A stretch of 64,000 nt of DNA from an uncultured Bacilli bacterium (lineage in GTDB: Bacteria; Bacillota_I; Bacilli_A; RF39; UBA660): the NCBI GenBank assembly GCA_934183165.1, contig CAKPRZ010000004.1, forward strand, positions 5,998-69,997, written 5' to 3'. The notes beneath the pieces were generated by a model. That model searched no databases. It was given only the letters and a program-made list of their open reading frames with translations, and was not told the origin of the DNA. This document shows, one piece after another, positions 5,147 through 57,687 of this stretch. Position 1 is the first letter of the stretch; each line of letters begins with the position of its first letter. Position numbers and translations under genes: made by a program.

Positions 5147-5164
5147 AAAAAAACATGATATAAT
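5136..5164 (+). promoter_or_regulatory. Putative promoter with extended -10 (TGaTATAAT) upstream of the ncRNA region
   Basis: tgatataat at 5156-5164. The -35 is weak. The TG extension could compensate. Confidence 0.35.
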
Positions 5165-5745
5165 GTCATAGAAATGGCGCATTATTCTAGTCAATACATT
5201 ATTACGAAGACGAGGGTAAAATATCGTTAAATAGCATACCTGTGAAGCGTCTGGTGTTTGCTTTATGTGCCCAACATAGGGTGAATGCTGGATTTGAAGA
5301 ATCTATGGGCGATCGTAATGGCATACGGCAACCGACCCATTTATTCGTGGAGACCTATTCTTGTGGGAAGATCTTTGGATACTTCTTACGACTTAGGATT
5401 AAACCTATTTTGTAGTGAAAGCTATGGATAGAGTAGCTAGACTTGAGTGATAATAGGGAATAGAGACAACTAAAATTTGGCGTACACCATTATTTTAGTA
5501 TCGCTACTTGAAACTATTATTGCAAAAAAGTATAAGTAATAGGTGGTATTGTTGGGGAAAACCTCTAGAATGTAGATTGATATAGGATTGCAGTGTGCAC
5601 TAAGTGGCAATCAAGTCATAGATAAGGAGACTTACTATTTATTCTTTTAAAAGGGAACTGCTATACTGGTAACAGTAAGTAAGAATAAGGGAAATCCAAC
5701 TTGACCTAAGGTACAAGGTTTACTATATTAATGCCATTTCATTAA
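5150..5745 (+). ncRNA. ole: Large structured non-coding RNA, candidate OLE (ornate, large, extremophilic) RNA
   Basis: About 600 nt with no ORF above roughly 40 aa on either strand. GC is clearly higher than in the flanks (GC-rich runs such as gggcgatcgtaatggcatacggcaaccgacc). It lies immediately upstream of a small 4-TM protein gene. Confidence 0.5.
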
Positions 5746-5757
5746 TATGGTGATTAT

Positions 5758-6345
5758 ATGAATAAGAAAACTTATAAAGAAAAATACTCAAAAAAAGTGG
5801 ATAAAAAGAAAATTAGTAATAAAAAAAATGTTGATCTACATTGGATTTTGACAATTACTATCACTGCTTTTTTGATATCAATGCTTTTTTCATTTTTATC
5901 GGAATCTATAATATCTAATGTAGGTGCTGTTGTTAGTGTATTGTTATTAATTATTGTTATTTTGATAGGCGTTATGTTTGATATGATTGGAATAAGCGTT
6001 ACAGTTGCTGATATCAAGACATTTAATTCGATGGCTACTAAAAGAGTTAAAGGTGCATCTTTAGCAGTTAAATTCATTAAGAATGCCGAAAAGTTGTCTA
6101 GTTTTTGCAATGATGTTATTGGTGATATTTGTGGAATAATTAGTGGAGCTCTTGCTTCTTCTATTTCTGTAATATTAGTAAACAAATTTAATTTGAATTT
6201 ACTCGCTACAACCCTTGCTACAACGGGAGTAGTAGCGTCATTAACTATAGGGGGAAAAGCCTTAGGAAAAGGATTTGCAATTAACAAAAGTAATGTTATT
6301 TTATATCATTTTTCTAAAGTTGTATCAATTTTTTATGGAAGGTAA
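5758..6345 (+). CDS. oapA: Small 4-TM membrane protein, candidate OLE-associated protein OapA
   Basis: 195 aa with a basic N-terminus and four predicted TM helices. It sits directly downstream of the ORF-free structured region. RBS ggtga. Confidence 0.5.
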   Translation: MNKKTYKEKYSKKVDKKKISNKKNVDLHWILTITITAFLISMLFSFLSESIISNVGAVVSVLLLIIVILIGVMFDMIGISVTVADIKTFNSMATKRVKGASLAVKFIKNAEKLSSFCNDVIGDICGIISGALASSISVILVNKFNLNLLATTLATTGVVASLTIGGKALGKGFAINKSNVILYHFSKVVSIFYGR

Positions 6346-6353
6346 GTAGTAAA

Positions 6354-6929
6354 ATGAAAAAGAAGTTATTAGTAAGTATTATTATTTTATCTATTATTGC
6401 TATCTTATTGGGTAGTATTATAGGAATAAAAAGAATTATCAAAAGTTATAAACTTGATCAAAAAACAACTGGTGAAATAGTATCAAAAATAAACAATGAA
6501 TATTCTGATTTTGAGAGTAAAATTAGTAATTATAATAAAGATTTAACTGAACTTATAGAAATATTAAATACTAGTTCGTATTATCAAAAAATTTATAAAA
6601 ATCAAGAAAAAATAATAAATTTATTAGATAGAGTAACAAAAGAAGTAAAAGAACTATCTTCTTATAATATTTTAAAAGAAAATTGTAATTTGAAATTCGC
6701 TGATGGAAAAGCATCAAGAGCCTGTAAATCTTTTTCTCAAACATATGAAAAAAGTGTTAATGTTTATGTTGACGTAGTAATTGCTTATAATGATATGGTA
6801 TCTAAAGTTAATGAGTTAGATGTTTCAAAAGAGAAGATTCAAACTTATGAAGGTTACTTTAAAAATTATATTGATTATAATAGTGATGGTAAATTTTTAG
6901 GAAAAGGAATAAAAGCAGGTGAGGAGTAA
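6354..6929 (+). CDS. Hypothetical membrane-anchored protein
   Basis: N-terminal TM (LLVSIIILSIIAILLGSII). RBS ggaagg. No recognisable domain. Confidence 0.6.
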   Translation: MKKKLLVSIIILSIIAILLGSIIGIKRIIKSYKLDQKTTGEIVSKINNEYSDFESKISNYNKDLTELIEILNTSSYYQKIYKNQEKIINLLDRVTKEVKELSSYNILKENCNLKFADGKASRACKSFSQTYEKSVNVYVDVVIAYNDMVSKVNELDVSKEKIQTYEGYFKNYIDYNSDGKFLGKGIKAGEE

Positions 6930-42508: not shown

Positions 42509-42643
42509 AATTGCCTTATTTTTCTTGCTGTAATTATAATACTATGTTATTCTTGTTGTGACGTTTGCAAAAAAATTATATTTTTTATATCTACTACATA
42601 TAAAAATGTAGTTTTTTGCGTTCTAGAAAAGGAGTGTGATAAA

Positions 42644-43624
42644 ATGTCATTCATCGAAGTAGAGCACATAAGTAAAACTTTTAAAGTCGTCAAAAGAGGA
42701 AAAGGCGCCAAAGAGGCACTAAAGTCCTTCTTTAGACGAAAGTACAAAATAGTTAATGCTATTTCAGATGTATCTTTTTCTATTGAAAAAGGTGAAATCG
42801 TTGGTTATATTGGACCAAATGGTGCTGGTAAATCTACTACTATAAAAATATTAAGTGGAATACTAACACCAGACGATGGTACTTGTATAATTGATGGTAT
42901 GACACCTTGGAAAGATAGAGAAAAGTATGTAAAAAGAATTGGTGTTGTGTTTGGACAAAGAAGTCAATTATGGTGGGATATACCTAGTTCTGATACTTTT
43001 GATTTATTAAAAGATATCTATAATATTTCAGATGATGAGTTTGAAAAAAACAAAACTGAATTAATTGACGCCTTGAACTTGAAAGATATTATAGATGTTC
43101 CGGTAAGGCAGTTGAGCCTAGGACAGAGAATGCGTTGTGAAATAGCAGCATCCCTACTACATAATCCAGAAATACTGTTTTTAGATGAACCTACTATTGG
43201 ATTAGATGCTGTATCAAAACAAATATTACGTGACTTTATTAAGAAAATAAATAAAGAAAAACAAGTAACCATTATACTTACTACTCATGATATGAGTGAT
43301 ATTGAGTCACTTGCTAAGAGAATTATCTTAATAGGAAAAGGTAATGTTTTATATGATGGTTCTTTGAAAAGCTTAAAACATAAGTATGGTAATAATAAAT
43401 ATTTAACTATTGTTACTAAAGATAAATTAAGTCTTAAACATAAAGGAGTAATTTCATCCGTTAAAGATATTGAGGGGTATCATTTTGTAATAGATTCAGA
43501 TATTATTAATATTTCTGATTTTTTAAATATTATATCTAATAAGGTCAATATAGATGATGTAGAAATAGATAATGAAAATATAGATAATATTATTGTTAGA
43601 TTATATGAGGAGTACCATATATGA
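42644..43624 (+). CDS. ABC transporter ATP-binding protein (ABC-2 type)
   Basis: Walker A GPNGAGKST, signature LSLGQRMR, Walker B LFLDEPTIGLD. Confidence 0.9.
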   Translation: MSFIEVEHISKTFKVVKRGKGAKEALKSFFRRKYKIVNAISDVSFSIEKGEIVGYIGPNGAGKSTTIKILSGILTPDDGTCIIDGMTPWKDREKYVKRIGVVFGQRSQLWWDIPSSDTFDLLKDIYNISDDEFEKNKTELIDALNLKDIIDVPVRQLSLGQRMRCEIAASLLHNPEILFLDEPTIGLDAVSKQILRDFIKKINKEKQVTIILTTHDMSDIESLAKRIILIGKGNVLYDGSLKSLKHKYGNNKYLTIVTKDKLSLKHKGVISSVKDIEGYHFVIDSDIINISDFLNIISNKVNIDDVEIDNENIDNIIVRLYEEYHI

Positions 43625-44424
43625 AATTTTATTACTCTTACTTTAAACTAAAGTTTATATCAGGACTTCAGTATAGAACTGCTGCGATAGCAGGTGTTTC
43701 TACTCAAATATTTTTTGGACTTATATTTATTATGGTATATGTTGCTTTTTATTCATCTAATTCTTTAGATTTATCATTTAATCTTCAACAAGCTGTAACT
43801 TATGTGTGGTTAGGTCAATGTTTTTTCTCGTTAGTTAATATGTTTTATAAAGATAATGAAATATTTGACATGATAAAGAAAGGCGACATTGCTTATGAAT
43901 TAATAAGACCTAAAAAATTATATTTTGTTTGGTTTTCTAAAATAATAGGTCAGAGACTAGCAATGGTTTCTTTAAGATGTATGCCAGTTATAATTATTTC
44001 ATTATTGTTACCTAAACCTTATAATTTATCTTTGCCAGTAAGTGTTTTTAGCTTTATTCTTTTTTTTGTAACTTTAATTATTGGAACATTATTAATGACT
44101 TCTATTATAACACTATATCATGTAATAACACTAAGTACATTAAATGAAAAAGGAGTAACTAATATCTTTATTGCTGTAGCAGATTTATTATCAGGTTTAG
44201 TAGTACCAATTCCTTTGTTTCCTAAGTTTTTACAAATTATTTCTGATTACTTACCATTTAGATATATAAGTGATTTACCTTTTAGAATATATTCAGGAAA
44301 CATTGGTATTAGTGAAGGTTTAATAGGAATATTAGTTCAAGTAATATGGATAATTATAATTACTATTGCTGGATATATCCTTACTAATAAATCACTTAAA
44401 AAAGTAGTGGTACAAGGAGGTTAG
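43621..44424 (+). CDS. ABC-2 family transporter permease
   Basis: Polytopic membrane protein. Translationally coupled to the ATPase (4-nt overlap). Confidence 0.75.
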   Translation: MKFYYSYFKLKFISGLQYRTAAIAGVSTQIFFGLIFIMVYVAFYSSNSLDLSFNLQQAVTYVWLGQCFFSLVNMFYKDNEIFDMIKKGDIAYELIRPKKLYFVWFSKIIGQRLAMVSLRCMPVIIISLLLPKPYNLSLPVSVFSFILFFVTLIIGTLLMTSIITLYHVITLSTLNEKGVTNIFIAVADLLSGLVVPIPLFPKFLQIISDYLPFRYISDLPFRIYSGNIGISEGLIGILVQVIWIIIITIAGYILTNKSLKKVVVQGG

Positions 44425-44425
44425 G

Positions 44426-45202
44426 ATGAAGTTATATTTTAAAGCATTTAAATTACATTTTAAATCTATGTTAGAGTATAGAGGATCTTTTATTATTTCT
44501 TTCTTATCACAAATAATAGTGTTCTTCTCATATTATTTCATTATTCTTTCTTTATTTGACAAGTTCGATAATATTAAAGGCTTTACTTTATATGAGGTGT
44601 TGCTTTGCTTTTCAATAATTCAATTTGGTTATGCTTTTTGTGAATGCTTTGCGAGAGGAATAGATAAATTTGATACGATTATTATAAATGGAGATTTTGA
44701 TAGATTATTATTAAGACCTAAAAATATTATTTTGCAAGTTTTATGTAATGATGCTGATTTTGTAAAATTATCAAGATTAATCCAAGCATTAATAGTTATG
44801 GTAATAGCGCTTATAAATCTTAATATTAAGTGGAGTATTATCAAAGTTATAACTTTAATATTAATGATGTCTAGTGCGATAGCAATATTCTTTGGTATTT
44901 TTTTACTTGCTGCTGCTTACTGTTTTATTACGGTACAAGGTTTAGAAGTAAGAAACGTATTTACTGATGGTGGTAAATATATGGCACAGTATCCTATTGG
45001 AATATTTAATAAAAGCTGGGTTTTATTTTTTACTTTTATTATACCTTATGCGTTTGTAAACTATTATCCGTTATTATATTTCATTGGTAAGAGTAATAAT
45101 ACTTATTATGGAATTTTTCCTTTGCTTGTGTTTTTATATTTAATTCCATGTTTTATTATATTTAATAAAGGAATAAAAAGATATACTAGCGTTGGATCGT
45201 AA
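44426..45202 (+). CDS. ABC-2 family transporter permease (second permease)
   Basis: Polytopic membrane protein. 1-nt gap to the preceding permease. Confidence 0.75.
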   Translation: MKLYFKAFKLHFKSMLEYRGSFIISFLSQIIVFFSYYFIILSLFDKFDNIKGFTLYEVLLCFSIIQFGYAFCECFARGIDKFDTIIINGDFDRLLLRPKNIILQVLCNDADFVKLSRLIQALIVMVIALINLNIKWSIIKVITLILMMSSAIAIFFGIFLLAAAYCFITVQGLEVRNVFTDGGKYMAQYPIGIFNKSWVLFFTFIIPYAFVNYYPLLYFIGKSNNTYYGIFPLLVFLYLIPCFIIFNKGIKRYTSVGS

Positions 45203-45291: not shown

Positions 45292-46374
45292 ATGAACTTA
45301 GAAAATTTGAAATATTGGATTGACAAAGATGGAAATAAAGTTTATGGTAATCCAAAAAAATATAATAAACCACTTGAATATTTAATGAGTAATAATCCTG
45401 AAGATGTAATTTCAAAGAAAGGAATAAGGATAAGGAAAATAATTCATCCTGTTTTTGTTAAATTATTGCCACTTACATCGAAAAATAAATTAAAAATAGT
45501 AAAGGATAATGAATACAGTGGAAAAATACCTAAAGATAAAAAAATAATATTTGTTGCTAATCATGGCTTTAAAGATGATGTTGCTTTAACTTTGATGAGC
45601 GCTAAACATCATGCTTATCCAGTGTTTGCTAGTATACCGGATTTCTTTTATACAATTGATGGATATGCTTTGTGGGCTAATGGTGTTATCCTTATGGATA
45701 GGAAAGATAAGGAAAGTAAAAATGCGGTTTTACCTAAGATTAATTATGCATTTAGTCAGGGCTTAAAAAGAATTATAATATTTCCTGAAGGAGTTTGGAA
45801 TAAAAATCCTAATGAAATGGTGCTTGATTTGTGGAAGGGAGCAGTATTAGCGGGAAAAGCAAATGATGCTTTAATAGTCCCTATATCAAATTTAAATAAA
45901 GATATGAAAATAGATAATGATGTTTCAAAGGGTAAAAAAGGAATTTGTTATTCATCTATTGGGAAACCTATTGATGTATCAAATATGACTGTTGAAGAAG
46001 CTGTGACTAATGTTAGAGATGCATTAGCAACAGGCAAATATAATTTAACTGAAAATTACTCAACTGACTTTAGGGATAACCTTGGATATAATAGTGAAGA
46101 GTATTGGGATAACTATGTAAGTGAGTTAATATCAACTGCACATATGGTTAAAGACTGTACTATAATAAATGAAGATGGAACAATAAAAAAAGTTGATTCG
46201 AGAGCTTATGATTATGAGATAGAAAATAGTGCAGACTTTAGAAGAGAAGATAAGATTAGTGAATTTTATGTTTTTGAAACAACTAACATGTTACCATTAA
46301 ATAAAAATAATATGAAAATACTTGTAAAAACGTTACCAGTTAAAAATAAAAATAAAAATTATTTTGAAGAATAG
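45292..46374 (+). CDS. Lysophospholipid/1-acyl-glycerol-3-phosphate acyltransferase family protein
   Basis: HxxxxD motif (ANHGFKDD) and FPEG motif (IIFPEGVW) of LPLAT acyltransferases. RBS gggggag. Confidence 0.7.
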   Translation: MNLENLKYWIDKDGNKVYGNPKKYNKPLEYLMSNNPEDVISKKGIRIRKIIHPVFVKLLPLTSKNKLKIVKDNEYSGKIPKDKKIIFVANHGFKDDVALTLMSAKHHAYPVFASIPDFFYTIDGYALWANGVILMDRKDKESKNAVLPKINYAFSQGLKRIIIFPEGVWNKNPNEMVLDLWKGAVLAGKANDALIVPISNLNKDMKIDNDVSKGKKGICYSSIGKPIDVSNMTVEEAVTNVRDALATGKYNLTENYSTDFRDNLGYNSEEYWDNYVSELISTAHMVKDCTIINEDGTIKKVDSRAYDYEIENSADFRREDKISEFYVFETTNMLPLNKNNMKILVKTLPVKNKNKNYFEE

Positions 46375-46426
46375 AAAAATATTTTATCTATTCTTTTTTT
46401 ATGATAAAATTATGATAGGTGATAAT

Positions 46427-48211
46427 ATGAATGAATTACAACTTCCATTATGTGCATTTTTCTTCTCGGCACTTTTATGTATAGTATTTTTTTCAAAGGA
46501 AAGGTTAAATTTAATTGAAAACAAATTATATTCGGTAATGATTGTTACTGGACTATTAGATAGTATTATTATAATTTTAGAAAGAATATTAGTAATTAGT
46601 GGAAATATAAATGATGTAACCCCTACTATTTATTTAGTTCTTCAAATAACAAATAAACTTGATTTCCTTGTATTGATAATTCTTACTACTTGTGCATTTT
46701 TATATACATTGTTAATTACATATCCTAAAGTAAAACCAAATATCAATAAATGGATAAAGTCTACTTTCTTATTAGATGCCATTGTGTATTTGATTATATT
46801 ATTTTCTGATGTACATTTAATAACTTATAATAATATTATAAGTGTAAGTGGTTCCGCTATTGTAATAACTTATGTTTTGGGTGGACTATATTTAATTATT
46901 TCCATGTTAATGGCAATTATAAATATCAAAAGGTTAACTAGAAGACATATTCCAATTATGAGTGCTATATTTATGTTCACTTTCCTAATATTTATTTTTA
47001 GAAACAACCCATATATTATGGTTATTTCAATAATTATTGCTTTTGCTAATTATCTAATGTATTTTACAATAGAGAATCCAGATATAAAAATGATAGATGA
47101 ATTAACAAAAGCTAAGACATTAGTAGAGAAAAATAATAACGATAAATCAATATTTATATTTAATACAACACAACAAATAAGGAATCCATTAAACATGATA
47201 GAACAAAAAACAGAACAAATATTAGATTATAATTTAGAAGAAGAAGTAAAAGAGAAGGTATTAGATATAAGGACATGTGAACAAAGGATATCATATATAT
47301 TAAGAGGAATAATGGATGTATCAACAATAGATGCAAAAAATATAAAGATAGTAAATAATCAATATAAGATAGGGAATATATTAACAGAAATAAAAATAAG
47401 AGCCAAGAAAGAAGCAGAAAAGAAAGGATTAGAATTTAGAACAAGTATAGATGAAGGGATGCCAGAGGAGTTATATGGAGATTCAATCCGCTTAAAACAA
47501 ATAATAAATGGAATAGTATCGAATGCAATAAAATATACAGATAAAGGATTTGTAGAATTAGATGTAAATTCAATAGTAAGCTTTGATATATGTAGATTAA
47601 TAATATCAGTAAAAGATTCAGGGATAGGAGTAAATGCAGATAAAATAAATAAATTGTTCCAAAGCAAGGAAGATATAGAATTAGATAAAGTAGAAGGTTC
47701 AGATATAACATTAGAAGTAGCAAAAAAGATGATAAATCTAATAGGAGGAACAATAACAGTAAGAAGTGAAAAAGGAAGAGGATCAGAGTTTACAATAATA
47801 GTAGATCAAAAGATAAAGACAGAAGAAAATAAGATAAAAGATATAGTAGATGAATATAAGAATTTAAATAATAAGAAGAAAATAATGATTGTTACTGATA
47901 ATGATGCTGATAGAGCTTCATTTATAAAGAAAATAGGCGATGATGTAAATTTAGTATTTGCTATGTCTGGTCAAGAATGTTTAGAAAAAATTCGTAATAA
48001 AGAAAATTTTGACTTAATAATTATTAAAGAAAAAATGGATAAGTTAGATGCCTTAAAAACAATAACTAAACTTAATGATATAAAAGGATTTAGTACAAAA
48101 GTTATAATTATGACAGATAGTGTAGAAACAAGTAAAAAGCTAAATATGCATGGATATGATACTATTTTAAATAATATAAGTTCTAGTGAACTAAAAAAAA
48201 TAATTAAATAA
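46427..48211 (+). CDS. Membrane hybrid sensor-kinase-like protein (His->Gln in H-box, degenerate C-terminal receiver)
   Basis: Start chosen at MNELQLP after RBS aggtga, by alignment with the paralog N-terminus FFSKERL. Multi-TM N-domain. HisKA-like FIFNTTQQIRNPL. HATPase_c motifs DSGIGV and GGTITVRSEKGRGSEF. REC-like tail lacking the phospho-Asp. Confidence 0.7.
   Translation: MNELQLPLCAFFFSALLCIVFFSKERLNLIENKLYSVMIVTGLLDSIIIILERILVISGNINDVTPTIYLVLQITNKLDFLVLIILTTCAFLYTLLITYPKVKPNINKWIKSTFLLDAIVYLIILFSDVHLITYNNIISVSGSAIVITYVLGGLYLIISMLMAIINIKRLTRRHIPIMSAIFMFTFLIFIFRNNPYIMVISIIIAFANYLMYFTIENPDIKMIDELTKAKTLVEKNNNDKSIFIFNTTQQIRNPLNMIEQKTEQILDYNLEEEVKEKVLDIRTCEQRISYILRGIMDVSTIDAKNIKIVNNQYKIGNILTEIKIRAKKEAEKKGLEFRTSIDEGMPEELYGDSIRLKQIINGIVSNAIKYTDKGFVELDVNSIVSFDICRLIISVKDSGIGVNADKINKLFQSKEDIELDKVEGSDITLEVAKKMINLIGGTITVRSEKGRGSEFTIIVDQKIKTEENKIKDIVDEYKNLNNKKKIMIVTDNDADRASFIKKIGDDVNLVFAMSGQECLEKIRNKENFDLIIIKEKMDKLDALKTITKLNDIKGFSTKVIIMTDSVETSKKLNMHGYDTILNNISSSELKKIIK
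47055..47904 (+). repeat. 850-bp exact direct repeat, copy 1 (within sensor-kinase-like gene)
   Basis: Apparently identical at nucleotide level to 55280-56129 (offset 8225). The encoded 283 aa are identical. The overlapping reverse-strand six-frame ORFs are identical too. Confidence 0.9.
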
Positions 48212-48240
48212 GAGATTGAAGATTTCAATCCCTTATTTTA
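48212..48240. terminator. Bidirectional terminator between convergent genes
   Basis: gattgaa-gat-ttcaatc hairpin between the stop at 48211 (+) and the stop at 48238 (-). Confidence 0.55.
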
Positions 48241-49164
48241 ATATTGTGGAGTATATCTTAACATATATAGGAAGTAATTAACTGAAGTATACATATTATC
48301 TAAAAATGTTGGTTCAATAATAAAATATGTATTTTTATTTAATAATTTTTCAATGCATTCTCTAATAAAATTACTAAAGTCAGTTACTAAATTAATTGCT
48401 CTTGAAGTAAGCATAGTTTGATTATCAGGCGTTATAGGTGTTTTAACATACAAGTCTTCTGATTCGCGGAAAGCAATCACAAACCTTTCTGACTCATCAG
48501 CAATGACTTCATCCCCTGGATCAACCAATTTATTTATTAAAACAGCAATTGTAAGCATTGAGTTATTTAATGATAATTCGGAAGTTATAACGAATGTTGG
48601 ATTATATCTTTGCCTTTGATTAATTCTATTTAATTGGTTGATAAATAATGATGTTTCATATATCATGAAATTTAAATAAGAAGGGAAAATATATGAAAAC
48701 ATATCTTGATTATTAACTTTATTTAGAATTTCTTCAATTAAATTAGAAAATTTTTCAACTAACATTAAAGCTTCATTATTAAAGTTTTCAATATCTTTAA
48801 CAAATTCATCAGTAACTTTAGTAGGAGTACCGGAAGATAACTCTAATTCTTCTTGTGTTATATCGGTCGCGATAGAAACATTAAACAATTTTTCGGTTAA
48901 TGATTCTAACGGAAGAGTATATGGAGTTACAAAAATATTTGATGTTAATGAATCTCTTGATAATATTCCATTTGAAACATTAACAATCCTTCTTCCTAAA
49001 TTTTCACATTTTTCTCCTATACTACCTAAACGAATTTTATATTCGTTATAATTGTCTGGTAGACCAAGTTCAACATTTAAACAAAAAAGTCTAACTGTTC
49101 TTAAATAATATAAATTAATACCTATAGAATCTTGAACAAATTCATTATTGTCTAGCATAAACAT
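48238..49164 (-). CDS. Hypothetical protein (possibly DUF2935 family)
   Basis: 308 aa soluble protein on the minus strand between the two kinase paralogs. Family assignment is from weak recollection only. Confidence 0.55.
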   Translation of the reverse strand: MFMLDNNEFVQDSIGINLYYLRTVRLFCLNVELGLPDNYNEYKIRLGSIGEKCENLGRRIVNVSNGILSRDSLTSNIFVTPYTLPLESLTEKLFNVSIATDITQEELELSSGTPTKVTDEFVKDIENFNNEALMLVEKFSNLIEEILNKVNNQDMFSYIFPSYLNFMIYETSLFINQLNRINQRQRYNPTFVITSELSLNNSMLTIAVLINKLVDPGDEVIADESERFVIAFRESEDLYVKTPITPDNQTMLTSRAINLVTDFSNFIRECIEKLLNKNTYFIIEPTFLDNMYTSVNYFLYMLRYTPQY

Positions 49165-49234
49165 CTCCTTTATAAATCTTCAATTTAATTATATGTAATT
49201 AGTAAATAAAAATTATAACTATACATATCATTTA

Positions 49235-49945
49235 ATGGTGATATTAATGAATAGAGTAATTTTTAAGTATAAGTATCAAGTCATAATTATGTTATTAATC
49301 CTTTTCAATTTATGTGTTGTTTTAAAAAATCAGGAAAATTATTTATTAACGGATAATGTTGTTTTAACTAAAAATGATGAAAAAAAATTAGAATTAAATG
49401 ATGAACATTCATATAAAGTTCTAGTTTATTATCCAAATAGTAAATATAAAATATTAAATAAAGAAATATCTATTAATATAAAAAAATATGTAGATGAATT
49501 TAAAAAGAATATTAAGAATATAGATGCCCAAAAAAATCAGTATTATACTTTAGATATTACTTATGATGAATATAAATATAATAATTATTTATCATATGTA
49601 TTCTATATTGACGACTATATAGGTGGAGCTCATCCTAACAGAAGAATATGGACAATCTCTTATGATATTAAAAACGAAAATATAATTACTATAGATGATT
49701 TGATTAAAAAGAATCCTGACTTTTTAGAAAAATTATCTACTATTATTAGAAAAGAATTATTGAGTAATGCTAAAGTATCTAATACATCTATGCTTTTAGA
49801 AGGAACCAAGACAGTTAAAGAAAATTTTACAAAGTTTGCTTTTGGTAAAAAGAGTTTTTTAGTTTTTTTCCAACCATATCAAATATCTTCATATAGTTCA
49901 GGGAGTTTTGTAGTTGAAGTTCCTTATTCAAAAATATTTGAATAA
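49235..49945 (+). CDS. DUF3298/DUF4163-like (RsiV/PdaC C-terminal-type) membrane-anchored protein
   Basis: N-terminal TM. YIDDYIGGAHPNRRIW motif, typical of DUF3298. The true start may be the ATG at 49247. Confidence 0.55.
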   Translation: MVILMNRVIFKYKYQVIIMLLILFNLCVVLKNQENYLLTDNVVLTKNDEKKLELNDEHSYKVLVYYPNSKYKILNKEISINIKKYVDEFKKNIKNIDAQKNQYYTLDITYDEYKYNNYLSYVFYIDDYIGGAHPNRRIWTISYDIKNENIITIDDLIKKNPDFLEKLSTIIRKELLSNAKVSNTSMLLEGTKTVKENFTKFAFGKKSFLVFFQPYQISSYSSGSFVVEVPYSKIFE

Positions 49946-49975
49946 TATTTAACAATATATTATAATTACAGTGAG

Positions 49976-50542
49976 GTGAAAATAATGATAACGACTTTAG
50001 TAGTAATAGGTGTAATAATACTAATTTTACTTTTATATTTTATTACAACCTATAATGGATTAGTTACTTTAAGAAATAGGGTCAAAGATGAATGGGCTCA
50101 AATTGATGTACAATTAAAAAGAAGAGCTGATTTAATTCCTAATTTAGTTGAAACAGTTAAAGGATATGCAAAACATGAAAAAGGTACTTTAGAAGAGGTA
50201 GTAAAAGCTAGAAATGCTTTATCTAGTGCTAGTACTGTTGATGATGAAATTGATGCAAATAATAAAATAACAGGAGCTTTAAATAAACTATTTGCCTTAT
50301 CAGAAGCATATCCAGATCTAAAAGCTAATGAAAATTTCTTAGCTTTACAAGCCGATCTAAAAGATACAGAGGAAAAGATTTCTTATGCTAGACAATTTTA
50401 TAATGATACAGTTTTATCTTATAATAACAAAGTAGAAATGTTCCCTACTAATATTATTGCTAATATGTTTGGTTTTAAGCAATATGAATTTTTCAAAGTT
50501 GAAAATAAAGAAGAAAAAGAAGTACCAAAAGTTAGATTTTAA
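49976..50542 (+). CDS. LemA family protein
   Basis: N-terminal TM. Conserved LemA block [44 protein letters not shown]. Confidence 0.85.
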
Positions 50543-50582
50543 GACTTACTTTTTGTAAGTCTTTTATTTTAAGGAGGAACTT

Positions 50583-52493
50583 ATGAAAAAAGTATATTTA
50601 ATAATTATAGGATTATTACTTGTAATGTTTCCCAACTTTGTATATGCAGATCAAACTACAAAATATTATATAGAGGTTGATATTCTAGACAATGGGGATG
50701 CTAATGTTAAAGAGTTAAAATTAATGGATGGTATCTATAATGGATATAAAACAAATATTAGATATAAAAGTGATGGTCTTGATAAGTTTACTGGAAAATT
50801 AGATGACTTTTCTGAAAGTGACATATATAATGCAACAGGTATAACTAATTTAAAAGTTTATGATGTTAAATTTAATAGTGATGATTTTTCAGTTATAAAT
50901 AATAAAATTAATGAATTTAGTCTTGTGAGTAGCGCTAAAAAAGGTGATTATAAAGTTTATACTAAAAAAGTGACTGATGAGGGATTTAATTTATTAGTAT
51001 ATTTACCATCATCTTATAAAAGAGCATCACTTGTTACCTATACATTAAAAAATCTGGTGGTAGTTCATAATGATATAGCTGAAATGGCTCATAATTTTAT
51101 TGGGAACGATTATGAAGAAAATATTAAAGATTTAATAATTAGGATAAAATTACCTAAAGAGAGTAAAGAATTAAAAATATTTTCACATGGACCTTTAGAT
51201 GGAAGTAATAGAATAATAAATAATCAAGAAGTAGAAATAACATATGATTTTTTAATTAGAAATAATGCTGTGGATGGAAGAGTAGTTTTTGATAAAGAAA
51301 TAGTACCAAATGCAATTAAGAAATCTAATGTAGATGGAATGGAAAATATTTTAAAAATCGAAAAAGAAAGAGCTGATATTGCTAATCAAGAAAGACAAAA
51401 TATATTAAAGATTGAAAAAGAAATGAAAAGAAAAAAGAATATTTTTGCTATTATATCAGGAGTATGGTTTCTTGGGCTTGTTTTAGTTGTATATAGGTTT
51501 AGCAAAAAAACAAGGCAAAAATATGGTGCTGAAATAGATAATAAATACTTTAGAGATTTTCCTAGTGATTATATACCATCAACAGTAGATTATTTAATGA
51601 ATAAAAGAGTTGGTAAATTGAGTTTTAAAGCTGAAATACTTGAACTTATTAGGAAAAAAGCAATTGTTTTAGAAGAAGTTATGAAAAATGGAATTAATAA
51701 GAAAAATATTTCAAAGACATACAAGCTTTCTAAAAATCCAACATTTAATTTAGAAGAGCTTAAAGATAGTGAAAAGATAATATATGAGTTATTAATAGAT
51801 GTAGCGGGTAATGGTGAATATGTAACATTAGATAAATTAAATAATTATACAAAGATTTATGATAATGCTAAAAAGTTTATGGTAAAATATGACTCTTGGC
51901 ATTATAAGAGTTTGAATGAGGCTAAAAGTGAAGAATTTTATGAGGATATAAGTAAAGATAAAATAAAAGCAATTGTTTATTCTTTATTAATAATGTGGAT
52001 TTTTATTATAAGTGTAGTATTAGGCGTGGCTTCTCTCATAAGTTTTGCCTTTAACATATTTGGAATAATGGCTATAATTTATTTCATTTGTTCTTCAAAA
52101 AGAACAAAATTAGGAAGTGAAGAATATTTTAAATGGAAAGGATTAAAAAACTTTCTAAATGATTTTGGCAGATTAGATGAAAAAGATTTACCTGAGATTA
52201 AGTTGTGGGAAAAATATTTAGTGTATGCTACTGTATTTGGAATTGCCACAAAGGTTCAAAAAAGTATGAAAATTAATTTGGATAAATTTAATTATAACGA
52301 TGGTATAGAATTCACATATTTATATGGCTTTGATTTTGGAGTTACTGATTCTATTTTTAATTCTATAGATAGTAGTATATCTTCTGCAAGAGGAGTGATT
52401 TATGCTCAAGAGTCATCTTCAACAGGATCTGGTGGTGGATCGTCTTTTGGTGGAGGAAGCTTCGGTGGAGGAAGCGGTGGAGGCCGTTTCTAA
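50583..52493 (+). CDS. DUF2207 domain membrane protein with Gly-rich C-terminus
   Basis: Signal peptide and extracytoplasmic domain. Internal TMs. C-terminal GSGGGSSFGGGSFGGGSGGGRF. Pairing with LemA is the conserved arrangement for DUF2207. Confidence 0.7.
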   Translation: MKKVYLIIIGLLLVMFPNFVYADQTTKYYIEVDILDNGDANVKELKLMDGIYNGYKTNIRYKSDGLDKFTGKLDDFSESDIYNATGITNLKVYDVKFNSDDFSVINNKINEFSLVSSAKKGDYKVYTKKVTDEGFNLLVYLPSSYKRASLVTYTLKNLVVVHNDIAEMAHNFIGNDYEENIKDLIIRIKLPKESKELKIFSHGPLDGSNRIINNQEVEITYDFLIRNNAVDGRVVFDKEIVPNAIKKSNVDGMENILKIEKERADIANQERQNILKIEKEMKRKKNIFAIISGVWFLGLVLVVYRFSKKTRQKYGAEIDNKYFRDFPSDYIPSTVDYLMNKRVGKLSFKAEILELIRKKAIVLEEVMKNGINKKNISKTYKLSKNPTFNLEELKDSEKIIYELLIDVAGNGEYVTLDKLNNYTKIYDNAKKFMVKYDSWHYKSLNEAKSEEFYEDISKDKIKAIVYSLLIMWIFIISVVLGVASLISFAFNIFGIMAIIYFICSSKRTKLGSEEYFKWKGLKNFLNDFGRLDEKDLPEIKLWEKYLVYATVFGIATKVQKSMKINLDKFNYNDGIEFTYLYGFDFGVTDSIFNSIDSSISSARGVIYAQESSSTGSGGGSSFGGGSFGGGSGGGRF

Positions 52494-52575
52494 TTTGACA
52501 AAAATGTAAAAAAATGGTATAATATGCAAACGTAATGTTGAGTAGTAAAATGATAGTAAAAAAGAGGGAATTATT

Positions 52576-54564
52576 TTGGAAAGAGATAGTATAGAAAATT
52601 TAAAAATAAGATATCAAAATTTAAAACCAGGTATAACTTTAAAATTGAAAGGGAAAGGTTATGCATCATTCGATGAACCTTGGAATAATCAATATCCTAT
52701 TTTGGATAAGGAAATGCCATCTAAATACATGTCAATGTATAGATATTTAGTTGAATCAACTAAAAACAACCCAAATAGTATAGCACTTGTTTATAATAGA
52801 AAAGGTAAGGAAGAAAATGTAACTTTTGCAAAGGTAAAAGAGAACATTGATAAGGCAGCTAAATCATTTAAAATGTTAAATATTAAGGCTGGTGATATTG
52901 TACCAGTTATATCTCTTACTACGCCTGAAGTTATTTATTCTTTTTATGCTTTAAATAAAATTGGAGCAATTCCACTTATGTTTGATATAAGAAAAGGTCC
53001 AAGTGAATATATAAAACAATTAAACGCAGTCGATGCTAAAACAATTGTTGTAGCCGATTTCATTTTGAAAAAATTAAAGAAAATCATGCCTAATACTATG
53101 GTTGAAAATGCAGTTGAGCTTCCATTCATCAAGGATATGAAATTATCTGAAATTTTAAAATCTGTAATAGGATCAAAAAATTCTTCTAAAAAATCAGAAA
53201 AAATAGAAATTAATAATGAATCTAAATCTTTAGGAATTAGTAGTTGGGATAAGTTTATTAAAAAAGGTGATGCCTTATTTGCTAAGGAAGAAGATATAGA
53301 GGCACCATATGAAAAAAACAAACCAGGACTTATGATTTTAACTAGTGGTACATCGGGTGCTCCTAAAGCTGTTATTCATGCTGCGGAAACAGTAAACTCT
53401 ATGCCACAAAAATATTATAAAACAGGTACATTTGATGCTAAAGTTGGAGAAAGAATGCTTACAATTATGCCTCCATTCCTTATGTATGCTGTACCACTTA
53501 CTTTTCAAACAGCCTTAACTAATAATGTTACTTTAGTTATACTTCCACAATCAAATAAAGAAAAGCTTTTAAAAGCAGTAAATAAATATAAACCAGAATA
53601 TTTTATAGGTTCTATTTCTCATTTTTATCAACTTTTAGATGCTGATGATTTAAGTTTTGCTAAATATTATGGTTGTGGTGGAGATAAAGTAAATAAGCAA
53701 GTTGAGACAAAATTAAAAGAACAATTGAGAGAACTTGGTATGAATACTGTATTTATTGGTTATGGTGCAACTGAGTTAGGGGGATCATCTGCTACTCAAA
53801 CGGCTAATCATAATGCAGTAAGTACAGTTGGTTTACCTTTATATGGATCTAAGGCTATTGTAGTTGATCCTAAAACATATGAAGAATTACCTTATGAACA
53901 AGAAGGACTTTTATGTATGCAGACAGATACAATGATGTTAGAATACTTCAATAACGAAGAGAAAACTAATCAAGTTTTTGCTCGTGATAAGGATGGAAAC
54001 ACTTATTTTGTTACTGGTGATTTAGGAGTTATTCATAAAAATGGTGAACTAAGTGTAATAGGAAGAATTAAACCACGTGCAGCATTATTTACTGGTCATA
54101 AATTTTCTCCAGATAATATAAATGAGGTGTTATTAAAACATCCAGATATTGAAGATGCTGTTACAGTAGCGCAACCTAACACTTATAATACTATAGAGAA
54201 AGGCTCTAATGATTTCCAAGGAAGTTGGCCACATTCATATATAATTTTGAATCAAGAAGATACTTCTGATGTTCAAGAAAAGATTAATGAAATTAGTGAA
54301 TTTTGTTTAAGAGAGTTAGGAAAAGAAGATGTGCCATTTTTCTATACAGTTGTAAAAAAAGAGGATGGATTTAAACTTACAGATAATGGAAAAGTCGATT
54401 TTAGATATTATGAAAAGCAACTTGTTTACATTAACGAAGGAGAAGCAATATCTAATAGTGACAATGGTATCCTTGTTCCAGATGTTACTACATTACAAAG
54501 AGATGCTAATATAATTATTGGTGCATCAAAAGAAAAAAAATTAAAAAAAATATTTAAAAGATAA
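52576..54564 (+). CDS. AMP-binding enzyme (acyl-CoA / acyl-ACP synthetase family)
   Basis: TTG start after RBS agaggga. AMP-binding motif ILTSGTSGAPKAV. Further conserved blocks GYGATELGG and FFVTGDLG. Confidence 0.8.
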   Translation: MERDSIENLKIRYQNLKPGITLKLKGKGYASFDEPWNNQYPILDKEMPSKYMSMYRYLVESTKNNPNSIALVYNRKGKEENVTFAKVKENIDKAAKSFKMLNIKAGDIVPVISLTTPEVIYSFYALNKIGAIPLMFDIRKGPSEYIKQLNAVDAKTIVVADFILKKLKKIMPNTMVENAVELPFIKDMKLSEILKSVIGSKNSSKKSEKIEINNESKSLGISSWDKFIKKGDALFAKEEDIEAPYEKNKPGLMILTSGTSGAPKAVIHAAETVNSMPQKYYKTGTFDAKVGERMLTIMPPFLMYAVPLTFQTALTNNVTLVILPQSNKEKLLKAVNKYKPEYFIGSISHFYQLLDADDLSFAKYYGCGGDKVNKQVETKLKEQLRELGMNTVFIGYGATELGGSSATQTANHNAVSTVGLPLYGSKAIVVDPKTYEELPYEQEGLLCMQTDTMMLEYFNNEEKTNQVFARDKDGNTYFVTGDLGVIHKNGELSVIGRIKPRAALFTGHKFSPDNINEVLLKHPDIEDAVTVAQPNTYNTIEKGSNDFQGSWPHSYIILNQEDTSDVQEKINEISEFCLRELGKEDVPFFYTVVKKEDGFKLTDNGKVDFRYYEKQLVYINEGEAISNSDNGILVPDVTTLQRDANIIIGASKEKKLKKIFKR

Positions 54565-54590
54565 AAGTACATTTTTGTACTTTTTTTAAT
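54564..54590 (+). terminator. Rho-independent terminator
   Basis: aagtaca-tttt-tgtactt plus ttttttt. Confidence 0.65.
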
Positions 54591-54651
54591 TTAAATATCA
54601 TTATATTCTTATTTGTGATATAATTATAAATAGAAAATATGGAGGTAATAT

Positions 54652-56463
54652 ATGAACGTAGGATTTACATTTTCGGTAGTAAGTTTATTTTATAGTATAT
54701 TATTAACAATAATCTTTTTCTCAAAAGAAAGACTTATAACATTAGAAAACAAAGTTTATTCATGGGCAATAATTGCAAATTTAATAGGAATTATATTGGC
54801 TATTAGTAGTTATTTTTTGATTTTGAGAGTTGATGAACTTCCAATTATTAATATTATTATCGCAAAGGGGTATTTAATATATTTATTATCTTATATTTCA
54901 ATATTGACCTTATATGTCTTACTAATTTCATCAAATAAGCTAAAAGAAGAGAAAAGTAACTATTTTGATAAATGTTTTAATATAGTATTTATACTGCTTT
55001 TAATATTTTCCTTTATAATAATAGTTTTACCAATTTATTTCTATCATAAAGGAAATGTGGTATATACGTATGGGCCTAGCGCTAATGTTGTATATTTGAT
55101 TTCATTAATATATATATTTGTCTGGATTATATTTATGCTTAGACAATATCAGCATTTAAAAAGTAAAAAGTATTTACCTCTGTTTTCATTTATTTCTATT
55201 GGAACAGTAGTTATGATAATTCAAAAACTAAATCCAGGATTATTATTAATGACTGCTATGGAAACATTTGTAACATTTTTAATGTATTTTACAATAGAGA
55301 ATCCAGATATAAAAATGATAGATGAATTAACAAAAGCTAAGACATTAGTAGAGAAAAATAATAACGATAAATCAATATTTATATTTAATACAACACAACA
55401 AATAAGGAATCCATTAAACATGATAGAACAAAAAACAGAACAAATATTAGATTATAATTTAGAAGAAGAAGTAAAAGAGAAGGTATTAGATATAAGGACA
55501 TGTGAACAAAGGATATCATATATATTAAGAGGAATAATGGATGTATCAACAATAGATGCAAAAAATATAAAGATAGTAAATAATCAATATAAGATAGGGA
55601 ATATATTAACAGAAATAAAAATAAGAGCCAAGAAAGAAGCAGAAAAGAAAGGATTAGAATTTAGAACAAGTATAGATGAAGGGATGCCAGAGGAGTTATA
55701 TGGAGATTCAATCCGCTTAAAACAAATAATAAATGGAATAGTATCGAATGCAATAAAATATACAGATAAAGGATTTGTAGAATTAGATGTAAATTCAATA
55801 GTAAGCTTTGATATATGTAGATTAATAATATCAGTAAAAGATTCAGGGATAGGAGTAAATGCAGATAAAATAAATAAATTGTTCCAAAGCAAGGAAGATA
55901 TAGAATTAGATAAAGTAGAAGGTTCAGATATAACATTAGAAGTAGCAAAAAAGATGATAAATCTAATAGGAGGAACAATAACAGTAAGAAGTGAAAAAGG
56001 AAGAGGATCAGAGTTTACAATAATAGTAGATCAAAAGATAAAGACAGAAGAAAATAAGATAAAAGATATAGTAGATGAATATAAGAATTTAAATAATAAG
56101 AAGAAAATAATGATTGTTACTGATAATGAGAAGGATAAAGAAATATATAATAGATTTTTCAGTAAAAATGTAATTTTAGAAATTGCTGAAAATGGAGAGG
56201 TTTGTTTAAATAAAATAAGAAGTGGGGAAAACTATGATTTAATTCTTATTAATGAAAAATTAAAGAAATTAGAGGCTTATCAAATAATAAATAAATTAAA
56301 AAAGTTAAAAATCCAAAATAATAAAGTTATCATTTTAACAGATAACAAAGATAAAGAAAAAGATTTGATTACTGCAGGATACTTAGCATTGTCAAAAGAC
56401 TATACCAAAGATAAATTTATGAAAAAAATAAATGGATTTTTAGATATTAACAAGGGTCTATAA
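54652..56463 (+). CDS. Membrane hybrid sensor-kinase-like protein, paralog of 46427..48211
   Basis: Different multi-TM N-domain. The central 283 aa (HisKA-like with Gln, plus HATPase_c) are identical to the paralog. Different degenerate REC-like tail. RBS ggagg. Confidence 0.75.
   Translation: MNVGFTFSVVSLFYSILLTIIFFSKERLITLENKVYSWAIIANLIGIILAISSYFLILRVDELPIINIIIAKGYLIYLLSYISILTLYVLLISSNKLKEEKSNYFDKCFNIVFILLLIFSFIIIVLPIYFYHKGNVVYTYGPSANVVYLISLIYIFVWIIFMLRQYQHLKSKKYLPLFSFISIGTVVMIIQKLNPGLLLMTAMETFVTFLMYFTIENPDIKMIDELTKAKTLVEKNNNDKSIFIFNTTQQIRNPLNMIEQKTEQILDYNLEEEVKEKVLDIRTCEQRISYILRGIMDVSTIDAKNIKIVNNQYKIGNILTEIKIRAKKEAEKKGLEFRTSIDEGMPEELYGDSIRLKQIINGIVSNAIKYTDKGFVELDVNSIVSFDICRLIISVKDSGIGVNADKINKLFQSKEDIELDKVEGSDITLEVAKKMINLIGGTITVRSEKGRGSEFTIIVDQKIKTEENKIKDIVDEYKNLNNKKKIMIVTDNEKDKEIYNRFFSKNVILEIAENGEVCLNKIRSGENYDLILINEKLKKLEAYQIINKLKKLKIQNNKVIILTDNKDKEKDLITAGYLALSKDYTKDKFMKKINGFLDINKGL
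55280..56129 (+). repeat. 850-bp exact direct repeat, copy 2
   Basis: See copy 1 at 47055-47904. Confidence 0.9.
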
Positions 56464-56544
56464 TAGATCCTTTATTTTTGGAGAAAATATATTTATATAG
56501 ATAAATTTTTGTGTTATAATTTGAATATAATCTGGAGGTTGCCT

Positions 56545-57687
56545 ATGAATGAAGAAAAATTTAGTATTCTAGAAAGATATGGAGAAAATTATACTGAAAA
56601 AGAATATATTACAAACCCTGCAATAGGTCGTGATAAGCAAATTAAGGAATTATTATTAGTATTATTAACTCCTGAAAAATCAGCTGTATTAATAGGTAAA
56701 CCTGGTGTAGGTAAAACTGCAATAGTAGAAGGCCTCGCATATAGAATAGAAAAAAATGATGTTCCTGATATACTAAAGGGTTATACAATTATCAATATAA
56801 AAACAGCTTCACTTCTTGGCACTATGCCTAATGGTGAAAGTAAAGTTCAAGTTATGATTGATGAGTTAAAAGAAAGAGAAAAAATCATTCTTTTTATTGA
56901 TGAAATTCATATGTTAATAGGTTCAACTGATTCTTCTTCTCTTGATTTTGCTAATATTTTTAAGGAAGGTCTTGGACGTGGAAGCATTAAAGTTATCGGT
57001 GCTACTACAACTGAAGAATATGAAAGATATATATTAAGAGATAAGGCTTTTACTCGTCGTTTTCAAAAAATAGAAGTTCCTGAACCAACAAGGGATGAAA
57101 CTGTTGAAATTATGATGGGAACATTACCAAAAATAGAAAAGACAACTGGCTTAAAGATGAAGTATACTCATTTTATTCAAGAACAAATAATGACTTTTCT
57201 AGTTGATTTAACTAGTGAATATAAAAGAGTATTTGAGATTGGATCAAGATATCCAGATATTTCATTAACATTACTAAAACAGGCTTTTTCATATGCAATG
57301 TTTGATAATTTGAAGGAAGTTAATATATTTCATGTTCAAAAAGCTATAGAAAATAGTAAGAATGTATATCCTGATGTTATAAAAAAAGAACTTCCAAAAT
57401 TTTTAAATCAATTTAAAGATATTATAAATGAAGAAAAACAAATAGGCGTTTCTTGGAATTATTCTAATGAGAAAAAAGATGATGTAATAGATAGAACTAC
57501 TAAAGAAATACCAAAACATGATAATTATCAAGACTTAGATCAAAATAAACTTATTAATAAATATATGGATATATTAAATCCCAATAAAGTTCCTGTTGAT
57601 GATGGTAATATTTCTCATGAAAAAGTGGACTTTAATCTTGATTTAAATAATAATGATGATGATGACAAGGATTATTTCTTTGATTAG
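56545..57687 (+). CDS. Stand-alone Clp/Hsp100-type AAA+ D1 domain ATPase
   Basis: Start chosen at MNEEKF after RBS ggagg. Strong similarity to the ClpA/ClpB first AAA domain: AIGRDKQIKELLLVLLTPEKSAVLIGKPGVGKTAIVEGLAYRI, ILFIDEIHMLIG, VIGATTTEEYERYILRDKAFTRRFQKIEVPEP. No D2 domain. Confidence 0.75.
   Translation: MNEEKFSILERYGENYTEKEYITNPAIGRDKQIKELLLVLLTPEKSAVLIGKPGVGKTAIVEGLAYRIEKNDVPDILKGYTIINIKTASLLGTMPNGESKVQVMIDELKEREKIILFIDEIHMLIGSTDSSSLDFANIFKEGLGRGSIKVIGATTTEEYERYILRDKAFTRRFQKIEVPEPTRDETVEIMMGTLPKIEKTTGLKMKYTHFIQEQIMTFLVDLTSEYKRVFEIGSRYPDISLTLLKQAFSYAMFDNLKEVNIFHVQKAIENSKNVYPDVIKKELPKFLNQFKDIINEEKQIGVSWNYSNEKKDDVIDRTTKEIPKHDNYQDLDQNKLINKYMDILNPNKVPVDDGNISHEKVDFNLDLNNNDDDDKDYFFD

Follow-up and report, generated by a model that had tools for sequence, protein, structure and literature searches.

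Two old sensor-kinase-like paralogs of an uncultured gut bacterium share an 850-nt block that is very probably kept alike by recurrent gene conversion

Concerted evolution of paralogous genes by gene conversion is documented in prokaryotes, for example in the tuf genes (PMC6053082), and concertedly evolving prokaryotic paralogs were treated by Santoyo and Romero (2005), as cited in the same survey. Three further papers (PMC8022953, PMC12046097, PMC13061034) describe gene conversion among rRNA operons and repeat-associated conversion and duplication in Mycobacterium tuberculosis. On the side of signal transduction, DivL has been described as a pseudo-histidine kinase (PMC4211667) and pseudo-receiver domains are documented (PMC12632262). 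Here we describe a locus that touches on both subjects. It lies in a 64,000-nt stretch of DNA (hereafter the window; GenBank assembly GCA_934183165.1, contig CAKPRZ010000004.1, positions 5,998 to 69,997 of the forward strand) from an uncultured human-gut bacterium of the Bacilli, very AT-rich at ~26% GC. Two sensor-kinase-like genes on the same strand, sensors A and B, share within the window an exact direct repeat of 850 nt. The features concerned are as follows, with positions counted from the first nucleotide of the window:

46427-48211, plus strand: sensor A, 594 amino acids (aa) from the ATG used by gene callers elsewhere; an in-frame TTG lies upstream at 46364
47055-47904, plus strand: repeat copy A (R_A), inside sensor A, exactly identical to 55280-56129
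54652-56463, plus strand: sensor B, 603 aa, with the same architecture as sensor A
55280-56129, plus strand: repeat copy B (R_B), the identical 850 nt, inside sensor B

Direct string comparison showed that the two copies are equal at 850 of 850 positions, and the longest exact run at offset 8225 coincided precisely with 47055-47904 and 55280-56129. The initial annotation had reported perfect identity over 850 bp at an offset of exactly 8225, and both statements proved correct. A search of the window against itself found no further long repeat in the 64 kb. Outside the block, nucleotide identity at the same offset was 0.2-0.4 upstream and 0.5-0.65 over ~300 nt downstream, and a codon alignment of the N-terminal flank gave 5-65% aa identity per 20-codon block. 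Identity at third codon positions was 1.0 within the block and ~0.2-0.6 outside it; since 0.36 would be expected at random for this composition, the flanks are saturated at synonymous sites. Chance can be ruled out as the origin of such a run, as even a per-site identity of 60% yields a probability of 0.6^850, or ~1e-189. At the protein level the two sensors are a mosaic with 64% identity overall, made up of 28% over the N-terminal 210 residues, 100% over the central 281-283 residues and 34% over the C-terminal tail, in agreement with the earlier description of divergent sensor domains and tails. The GC content of the repeat matched that of its surroundings, and a foreign origin of the block was rejected on this ground. 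Two pairs of antisense open reading frames (ORFs; 47359-47667 with 55584-55892, and 47436-47753 with 55661-55978) have equal translations, as had been remarked before. We rejected these ORFs as functional genes and regard them as leucine/isoleucine/phenylalanine-rich by-products of a purine-rich sense strand; a comparable antisense ORF was present in both paralog copies of a distant relative.

Pfam searches and transmembrane (TM) prediction showed that R_A encodes, in this order, the final 5-6 residues of TM7, a juxtamembrane linker with the motif ENPDIKM, the HisKA-like helix pair that resembles a dimerization and histidine-phosphotransfer (DHp) domain, the HATPase_c domain, a linker and, from sensor A's receiver-like tail, the first strand (KKIMIVTDN). 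The block therefore has the HisKA-like, HATPase_c and receiver-start content first ascribed to it, but it does not include the whole of the last TM segment.

The age of the two paralogs was revealed by a sister species (~60% aa identity) that carries both of them in a different order. The N-terminal domain of sensor A is 71% identical in aa sequence to that of its A-like counterpart and that of sensor B is 53% identical to its B-like counterpart, as compared with 22-28% between paralogs. These domains are thus one-to-one orthologous across species, and it follows that the duplication is old and predates speciation. In the sister species the core composed of the DHp and the catalytic, ATP-binding domain is only ~75% identical in nucleotide sequence between the paralogs. 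Homogenization is found there at the 3' end instead, where an exact run of 498-507 nt begins at the G2 box and ends 27 nt beyond the stop codon in four recovered loci (L010, L011, L012 and L022; L and P numbers denote recovered loci and proteins). Self-BLAST at >=90% identity missed this tract, as the alignments ran into diverged sequence, and exact-run profiling was used instead. In three other strains of the sister species (L020, L021 and L023) the tail of the second paralog has a haplotype of its own, with 23-28 differences in 543 nt (~5%); these assemblies are clearly able to keep both copies apart. The tail has been replaced by that of the first paralog in some strains only, a conversion event polymorphic within the species.

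A third version of the phenomenon was observed in a distant relative (~32% aa identity), which has an intact H box and two tandem modules, each composed of an AMP-ligase and a sensor gene. Its sensors share an exact run of 999-1089 nt over core and tail, the copies cluster by genome, and they differ at 1-4 positions, all but one of which lie within 130 nt of the 5' edge. The boundaries of the homogenized tract hence differ between species. L069, an unrelated locus of this sensor family from a metagenome, likewise contains a direct repeat, of 421 nt and 94% identity (1316-1734 and 3079-3499 of that locus).

An abrupt, discrete tract with a third-position identity of 1.0 between paralogs of an old duplication argues for conversion and against recent duplication of the whole gene. 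We consider it very probable that sensors A and B are old, tandem-oriented paralogs whose cytoplasmic core has been kept identical, or nearly so, by recurrent interlocus gene conversion. The preference for recent conversion over ancient duplication expressed in the initial annotation is in this way supported by the orthologous N-termini together with the identity of the core at synonymous sites. A recent duplication of the whole gene with very fast divergence of its ends, or purifying selection acting alone on the core, could appeal to the core, better conserved in this family than any other part (aa identities of 76% and 63% with the sister orthologs). Nevertheless, the 850 nt between the saturated flanks lack even synonymous differences, each N-terminal domain has an ortholog of its own in the sister species, and that species has its tail and not its core in identical form, such that no module is universally preserved; we give such a history almost no credence.

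The locus with the 850-nt repeat was recovered from other assemblies, all from independent human-gut metagenomes belonging to the Hadza cohort and three other series (prefixes MERR22 and WUHA17; k141 assemblies). Both copies are present in seven genomes including the window, and the boundaries are the same in the six other independent assemblies, apart from shifts of a few nt between strains (at R847 and R848, where R positions are numbered within the 850-nt repeat). Copies A and B are identical over the 850 nt in the window, L001, L004, L015 and L017; they show one difference in L013, at R847 and 4 nt from the end of the tract, and seven in L016, all inside R64-281. Comparison between lineages gave 2-23 differing sites in the repeat and a similar divergence, of 1.6-2.9%, in the flanks. 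The paralogs within a genome (0-7 differences) are thus closer to each other than orthologous copies are between lineages, and other strains carry lineage-specific substitutions common to both copies. One such site is R821: window-type genomes have G in each of their two copies, and L013 and L014 have A in each of theirs. Because this site lies 30 nt from the unique flank, it can be assigned to its own copy even by short k-mers. Identity within genomes together with difference between lineages is the pattern of concerted evolution by gene conversion.

As for the mechanism, homologous recombination, presumably RecA-dependent repair or template switching, would copy one core over the other across 8.2 kb. 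The tract would stop where homology stops, the 7-TM region and the receiver-like tail being too diverged for heteroduplex extension, and its boundaries would thereby be both sharp and self-perpetuating. The window core shares 76% aa identity with the B-like core of the sister species and 63% with the A-like core, which suggests that B overwrote A, probably the direction of the transfer. The homogenization may be largely neutral; since the homogenized module is not the same in every species, the pattern does not call for selection in favor of a uniform module, although such selection may also have acted.

Several observations weigh against taking the perfect identity, and with it part of the evidence for conversion, at face value. 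The window and the Hadza contig behind L001/L003 show four mismatches in 27,574 nt, and four of four fall inside the repeat, where they represent R335 and R362 changed in both copies; L004 likewise has G/G at these sites. A second pair of near-clones, L016 and L017, shows nine mismatches in 21,812 nt, again all nine inside the repeat, and seven of these are differences between A and B that are resolved in L016 and identical in L017. Near-clones that differ only inside the repeat imply that the assemblies may overstate the identity of its interior and, to some extent, the grouping of copies by genome. The differences visible within genomes lie mostly near the edges of the tract (within ~130 nt, and up to 281 nt in L016), as would be expected because short reads can phase variants there. 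Moreover, the linkage of N- to C-terminal parts across the 850-nt repeat rests on loop resolution by the assembler and not on spanning reads, and in L014 a gap of 100 N interrupts copy A, of which the first 55 nt and the last 58 nt were assembled. The sites in question are:

47389 and 47416, plus strand (R335 and R362; equivalents in R_B 55614 and 55641): candidate collapsed paralog variants, A/A in the window copies and G/G in two otherwise identical assemblies

The most economical interpretation is that variants in the interior of the repeat are collapsed, or phased arbitrarily, in short-read graphs. We put slightly above even the chances that the repeat is real while its perfection is a product of assembly, the true copies differing by ~0.2-1% at interior sites that were lost in de Bruijn bulge removal; this would refine gene conversion as the explanation and not replace it. 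Two independent changes that both fall within 1,700 nt of repeat in 27,574 nt have a probability of ~0.004 by simple arithmetic, and the L014 gap points the same way. Against this, conversion of a kilobase repeat could outpace point mutation in 20 kb, so that real differences between near-clones are possible, and both the sister-species assemblies and L016 keep paralog differences, which shows that collapse is not universal. If interior variants were collapsed, the true copies of the window probably differ at least at 47389/47416 as compared with 55614/55641. The assembled 100%, known from short-read assemblies alone, is probably a slight overestimate. As near-clonal assemblies disagree at one to three bulges and not at many, the hidden differences are not numerous and conversion by recombination is not overturned.

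The genes around and between the two copies, which bear on what recombination could do at this locus, are given below:

45292-46374, plus strand: PlsC-type acyltransferase gene (Pfam and NCBIfam), directly upstream of sensor A; accompanies the A-type sensor in the sister species
48206-48238, no strand assigned: terminator-like hairpin between sensor A and the DUF2935 gene, which are convergent (consensus scan only)
48238-49164, minus strand: DUF2935 gene, convergent with sensor A and the first of five genes between the repeats
49235-49945, plus strand: DUF3298/PdaC-like gene (Pfam)
49976-50542, plus strand: LemA-family gene (214 bits)
50583-52493, plus strand: DUF2207 membrane-protein gene (Pfam)
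52576-54564, plus strand: AMP-binding (acyl-CoA-ligase-like) gene (Pfam), directly upstream of sensor B
56452-56472: terminator-like hairpin at the end of sensor B (consensus scan only)
56509-57687, plus strand: AAA ATPase gene, downstream of sensor B

Pfam confirmed the five intervening genes as first named (DUF2935, DUF3298/PdaC, LemA, DUF2207 and AMP-binding). In the sister species, the LemA, DUF2207 and AMP-ligase genes accompany the B-type sensor and the second sensor is again followed by an AAA gene; the order there is LemA, DUF2207, AMP-ligase, B-like sensor, acyltransferase, A-like sensor, AAA (L010-L012, 5472-16198). The order of the modules is swapped relative to window 45292-57687, in which the acyltransferase and sensor A come first and the DUF2935 and DUF3298 genes are inserted between the modules. 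The AAA ATPase is 392 aa long (380 aa by gene calls elsewhere), and its match to ClpA/ClpB/ClpV is confined to their first ATPase module (model positions ~150-410).

A programmed site-specific exchange of cassettes, of the shufflon or phase-variation type, or a mobile cassette residing in both genes might produce the sharp boundaries that recur across strains. Pfam found no recombinase or transposase gene among the neighboring genes, though, and the 64-kb window contains no inverted repeat of at least 40 nt. The tract itself is an in-frame homologous kinase core, and its boundaries vary between species and shift by the few nt noted above between strains; we regard an origin of this kind as exceedingly improbable.

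Side observations were made on the flanking DNA. Strain L013 (1-536/535-) is without a 2.66-kb segment (42526-45185) that in the window encodes an ABC ATPase and two ABC-2 permeases upstream of the acyltransferase, and an ABC transporter of the same type lies directly downstream of the second sensor in the distant relative described above (L053). L004 has 36 substitutions within ~450 nt of an ABC-2 permease gene (window 43950-44402), suggestive of an imported recombination tract; the remainder of its sequence departs from the window solely at four sites, R335 and R362 of each repeat copy. In L014, an extra ~390 nt (792-1182) with an ORF of 98 aa (852-1148) is located between the ABC-2 permease and acyltransferase genes and is absent from the window and L008. 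Far from the sensors, a full-length OLE (ornate, large, extremophilic) RNA occurs at 5158-5753 on the plus strand (357.7 bits against a gathering cut-off of 50, model positions 1-616), and the ORFs at 5758-6345 and 6354-6929 directly downstream of it could encode OLE-associated proteins; the presence of this RNA points to Bacillota.

Direct repeats as long as 850 nt readily undergo RecA-dependent deletion and duplication. The initial annotation had proposed that the intervening genes could be deleted or inverted by recombination between the copies; since the repeats are direct, deletion (or duplication) is possible and inversion is not. Products with the corresponding junctions do occur in the databases. 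Hybrid proteins that join the N-terminus of B through the core to the C-terminus of A (B_N-core-A_C) were found as P0010-P0012, and the reciprocal type (A_N-core-B_C) as P0013-P0015, P0121 and P0122. At the level of contigs, L008, L009, L018 and L019 follow a deletion path, in which the acyltransferase, a fused A_N-core-B_C sensor and the AAA gene are present without the middle genes, and L007 follows the loop path with a B_N-core-A_C sensor and equals the 8,225-nt loop minus 26 nt. A closed circle was considered for L007 and rejected, as its ends do not overlap. The B-type tail of L009 (7638-7936) has, relative to the window, a 36-nt in-frame deletion that results in a product of 591 aa.

Crossing-over between the copies would yield real variants in gut populations, namely an 8.2-kb deletion with a fused A_N-core-B_C sensor, or a circle or tandem duplication with a B_N-core-A_C sensor, and would thereby turn the repeat into a recombinational switch that governs the five-gene module and the pairing of sensors with tails. 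The four fused contigs share their junction with P0014 and P0122, that of L007 recurs in P0011 and P0012, and chimeric junctions come from several samples and two assemblers. On the other hand, all nine chimeric contigs are at most 8.4 kb long, the two coverages on record are 3.7x and 4.0x, and the two reciprocal junction types are both represented, in lineages from which the standard order is known as well: L008 and L009 are 99.25% identical to L014, and L018, L019, L007 and L002 form one lineage at ~99.3%. Every contig of at least 26 kb has the standard gene order, so that loss of the intervening segment in related strains was seen in short contigs only. The findings fit an unresolved repeat at which incoming and outgoing edges of the graph were paired at random, and the loop carries no replication genes. 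For these reasons the chimeric proteins were down-weighted as evidence of real recombinants; the chimeric contigs are likely to be mis-joins, and genuine deletion or duplication variants seem to us unlikely. The standard arrangement persists across lineages ~3% apart, which indicates that deletion products are selected against. The suspicion that the repeat is a hotspot of assembly collapse was well founded, as evidenced by the N-gap of L014, the joins in short contigs and the near-clones that differ only inside the repeat.

Both sensors have seven predicted TM segments, a DHp domain without its His, a HATPase_c domain and a receiver-like tail without its Asp. The HATPase_c domains scored 64.7 and 64.8 bits against a Pfam cut-off of 26.4, and the N box and G1 box are visible when aligned to solved kinases. 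HisKA reached 22.7 bits and Response_reg 24-27 bits, both under the Pfam gathering cut-offs (26.9 and 30.2, respectively). In the H box, FNTTQQIRNPL aligns to (M/V/I)SHE(I/L)RTP(L/I) of 7z8n, SrrB and HK853-type chains and places Gln at the phospho-acceptor His. At the receiver Asp site, the alignment of DLILINEKL of sensor B to DLVILDIEM of 3a0u puts Asn in place of the Asp, and sensor A has Lys there (DLIIIKEKM). The G2 box (GxGxG) appears degenerate, with EGSDITL aligning to GGTGLGL and two glycines lost. RetS was among the structural matches of the sensors. With Gln in place of His and Lys or Asn in place of the receiver Asp, the sensors look like pseudo-kinases. All 120 of the 120 closest database homologs have the QQ box, and the canonical SHE(I/L)RTPL is kept in 67 of 88 genes of the wider family recovered from JGI metagenomes. 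Members of the family have a conserved juxtamembrane ENPD(I/M)KM motif, no Pfam model exists for the 7-TM sensor domain, and sensor B matched only distant relatives (26-35% identity) in species-representative genomes. On these alignments, sensors A and B are kinase look-alikes, a His-less subclade that descends from a genuine 7-TM hybrid-kinase family, and by analogy with DivL and pseudo-receivers we infer that they signal without a canonical phosphorelay.

The block might also be functionally meaningful, with identical dimerization and ATPase-like cores kept for heterodimers or for a shared partner, and with crossover variants (a fused sensor that loses five envelope-related genes, or amplified and tail-swapped sensors) acting as a recombination-driven envelope-sensing switch in a gut commensal; we regard this as a long shot. 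Irrespective of it, two paralogs with the same dimerization domain would lose the insulation that normally separates paralogous kinases from each other.

Several consequences follow for work on signaling genes. The locus exemplifies domain-resolved, mosaic concerted evolution, in which the sensor domains are free to diverge and the cytoplasmic module is overwritten time and again, in three species and over different tracts; judging by their motifs, this takes place in hybrid kinases that are apparently catalytically dead. Trees based on the core would wrongly suggest a recent duplication, which matters for phylogenies of two-component systems and for the prediction of their specificity. For the quality of metagenome-assembled genomes, the repeat yields N-gaps, probably hidden paralog variants, and the chimeric database proteins P0010-P0015, P0121 and P0122.

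The comparison with described systems can be drawn on three sides. Like DivL and the pseudo-receivers, the window sensors have kinase and receiver folds that are recognizable by sequence and in which the phospho-acceptor His and Asp are replaced. They differ by their unannotated 7-TM sensor domain and apparently degenerate G2 box, they are known here from sequence alone, and most relatives in their family retain the canonical SHE(I/L)RTPL box. With the rRNA operons and the repeats of M. tuberculosis, the locus shares the homogenization of dispersed repeats by homologous recombination, and the papers on them likewise warn that events of this kind are hidden from short reads; those cases rest on complete or long-read genomes, whereas the present one rests on short-read metagenome assemblies only. 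Gene conversion between bacterial paralogs is already well known from tuf and the rRNA operons (PMC6053082, PMC8022953), and in this respect the window locus is real but ordinary. The main text of the PMC6053082 survey contains no mention of a histidine kinase. The closest parallel is tufA/tufB, with which the sensors have in common an old duplication, a likeness within genomes that exceeds that between genomes, identity at synonymous sites and recurrent conversion. What distinguishes the window case from tufA/tufB is that a single domain block of a multidomain gene is homogenized, that this block differs between species, and that the two copies lie 8.2 kb apart in direct orientation.

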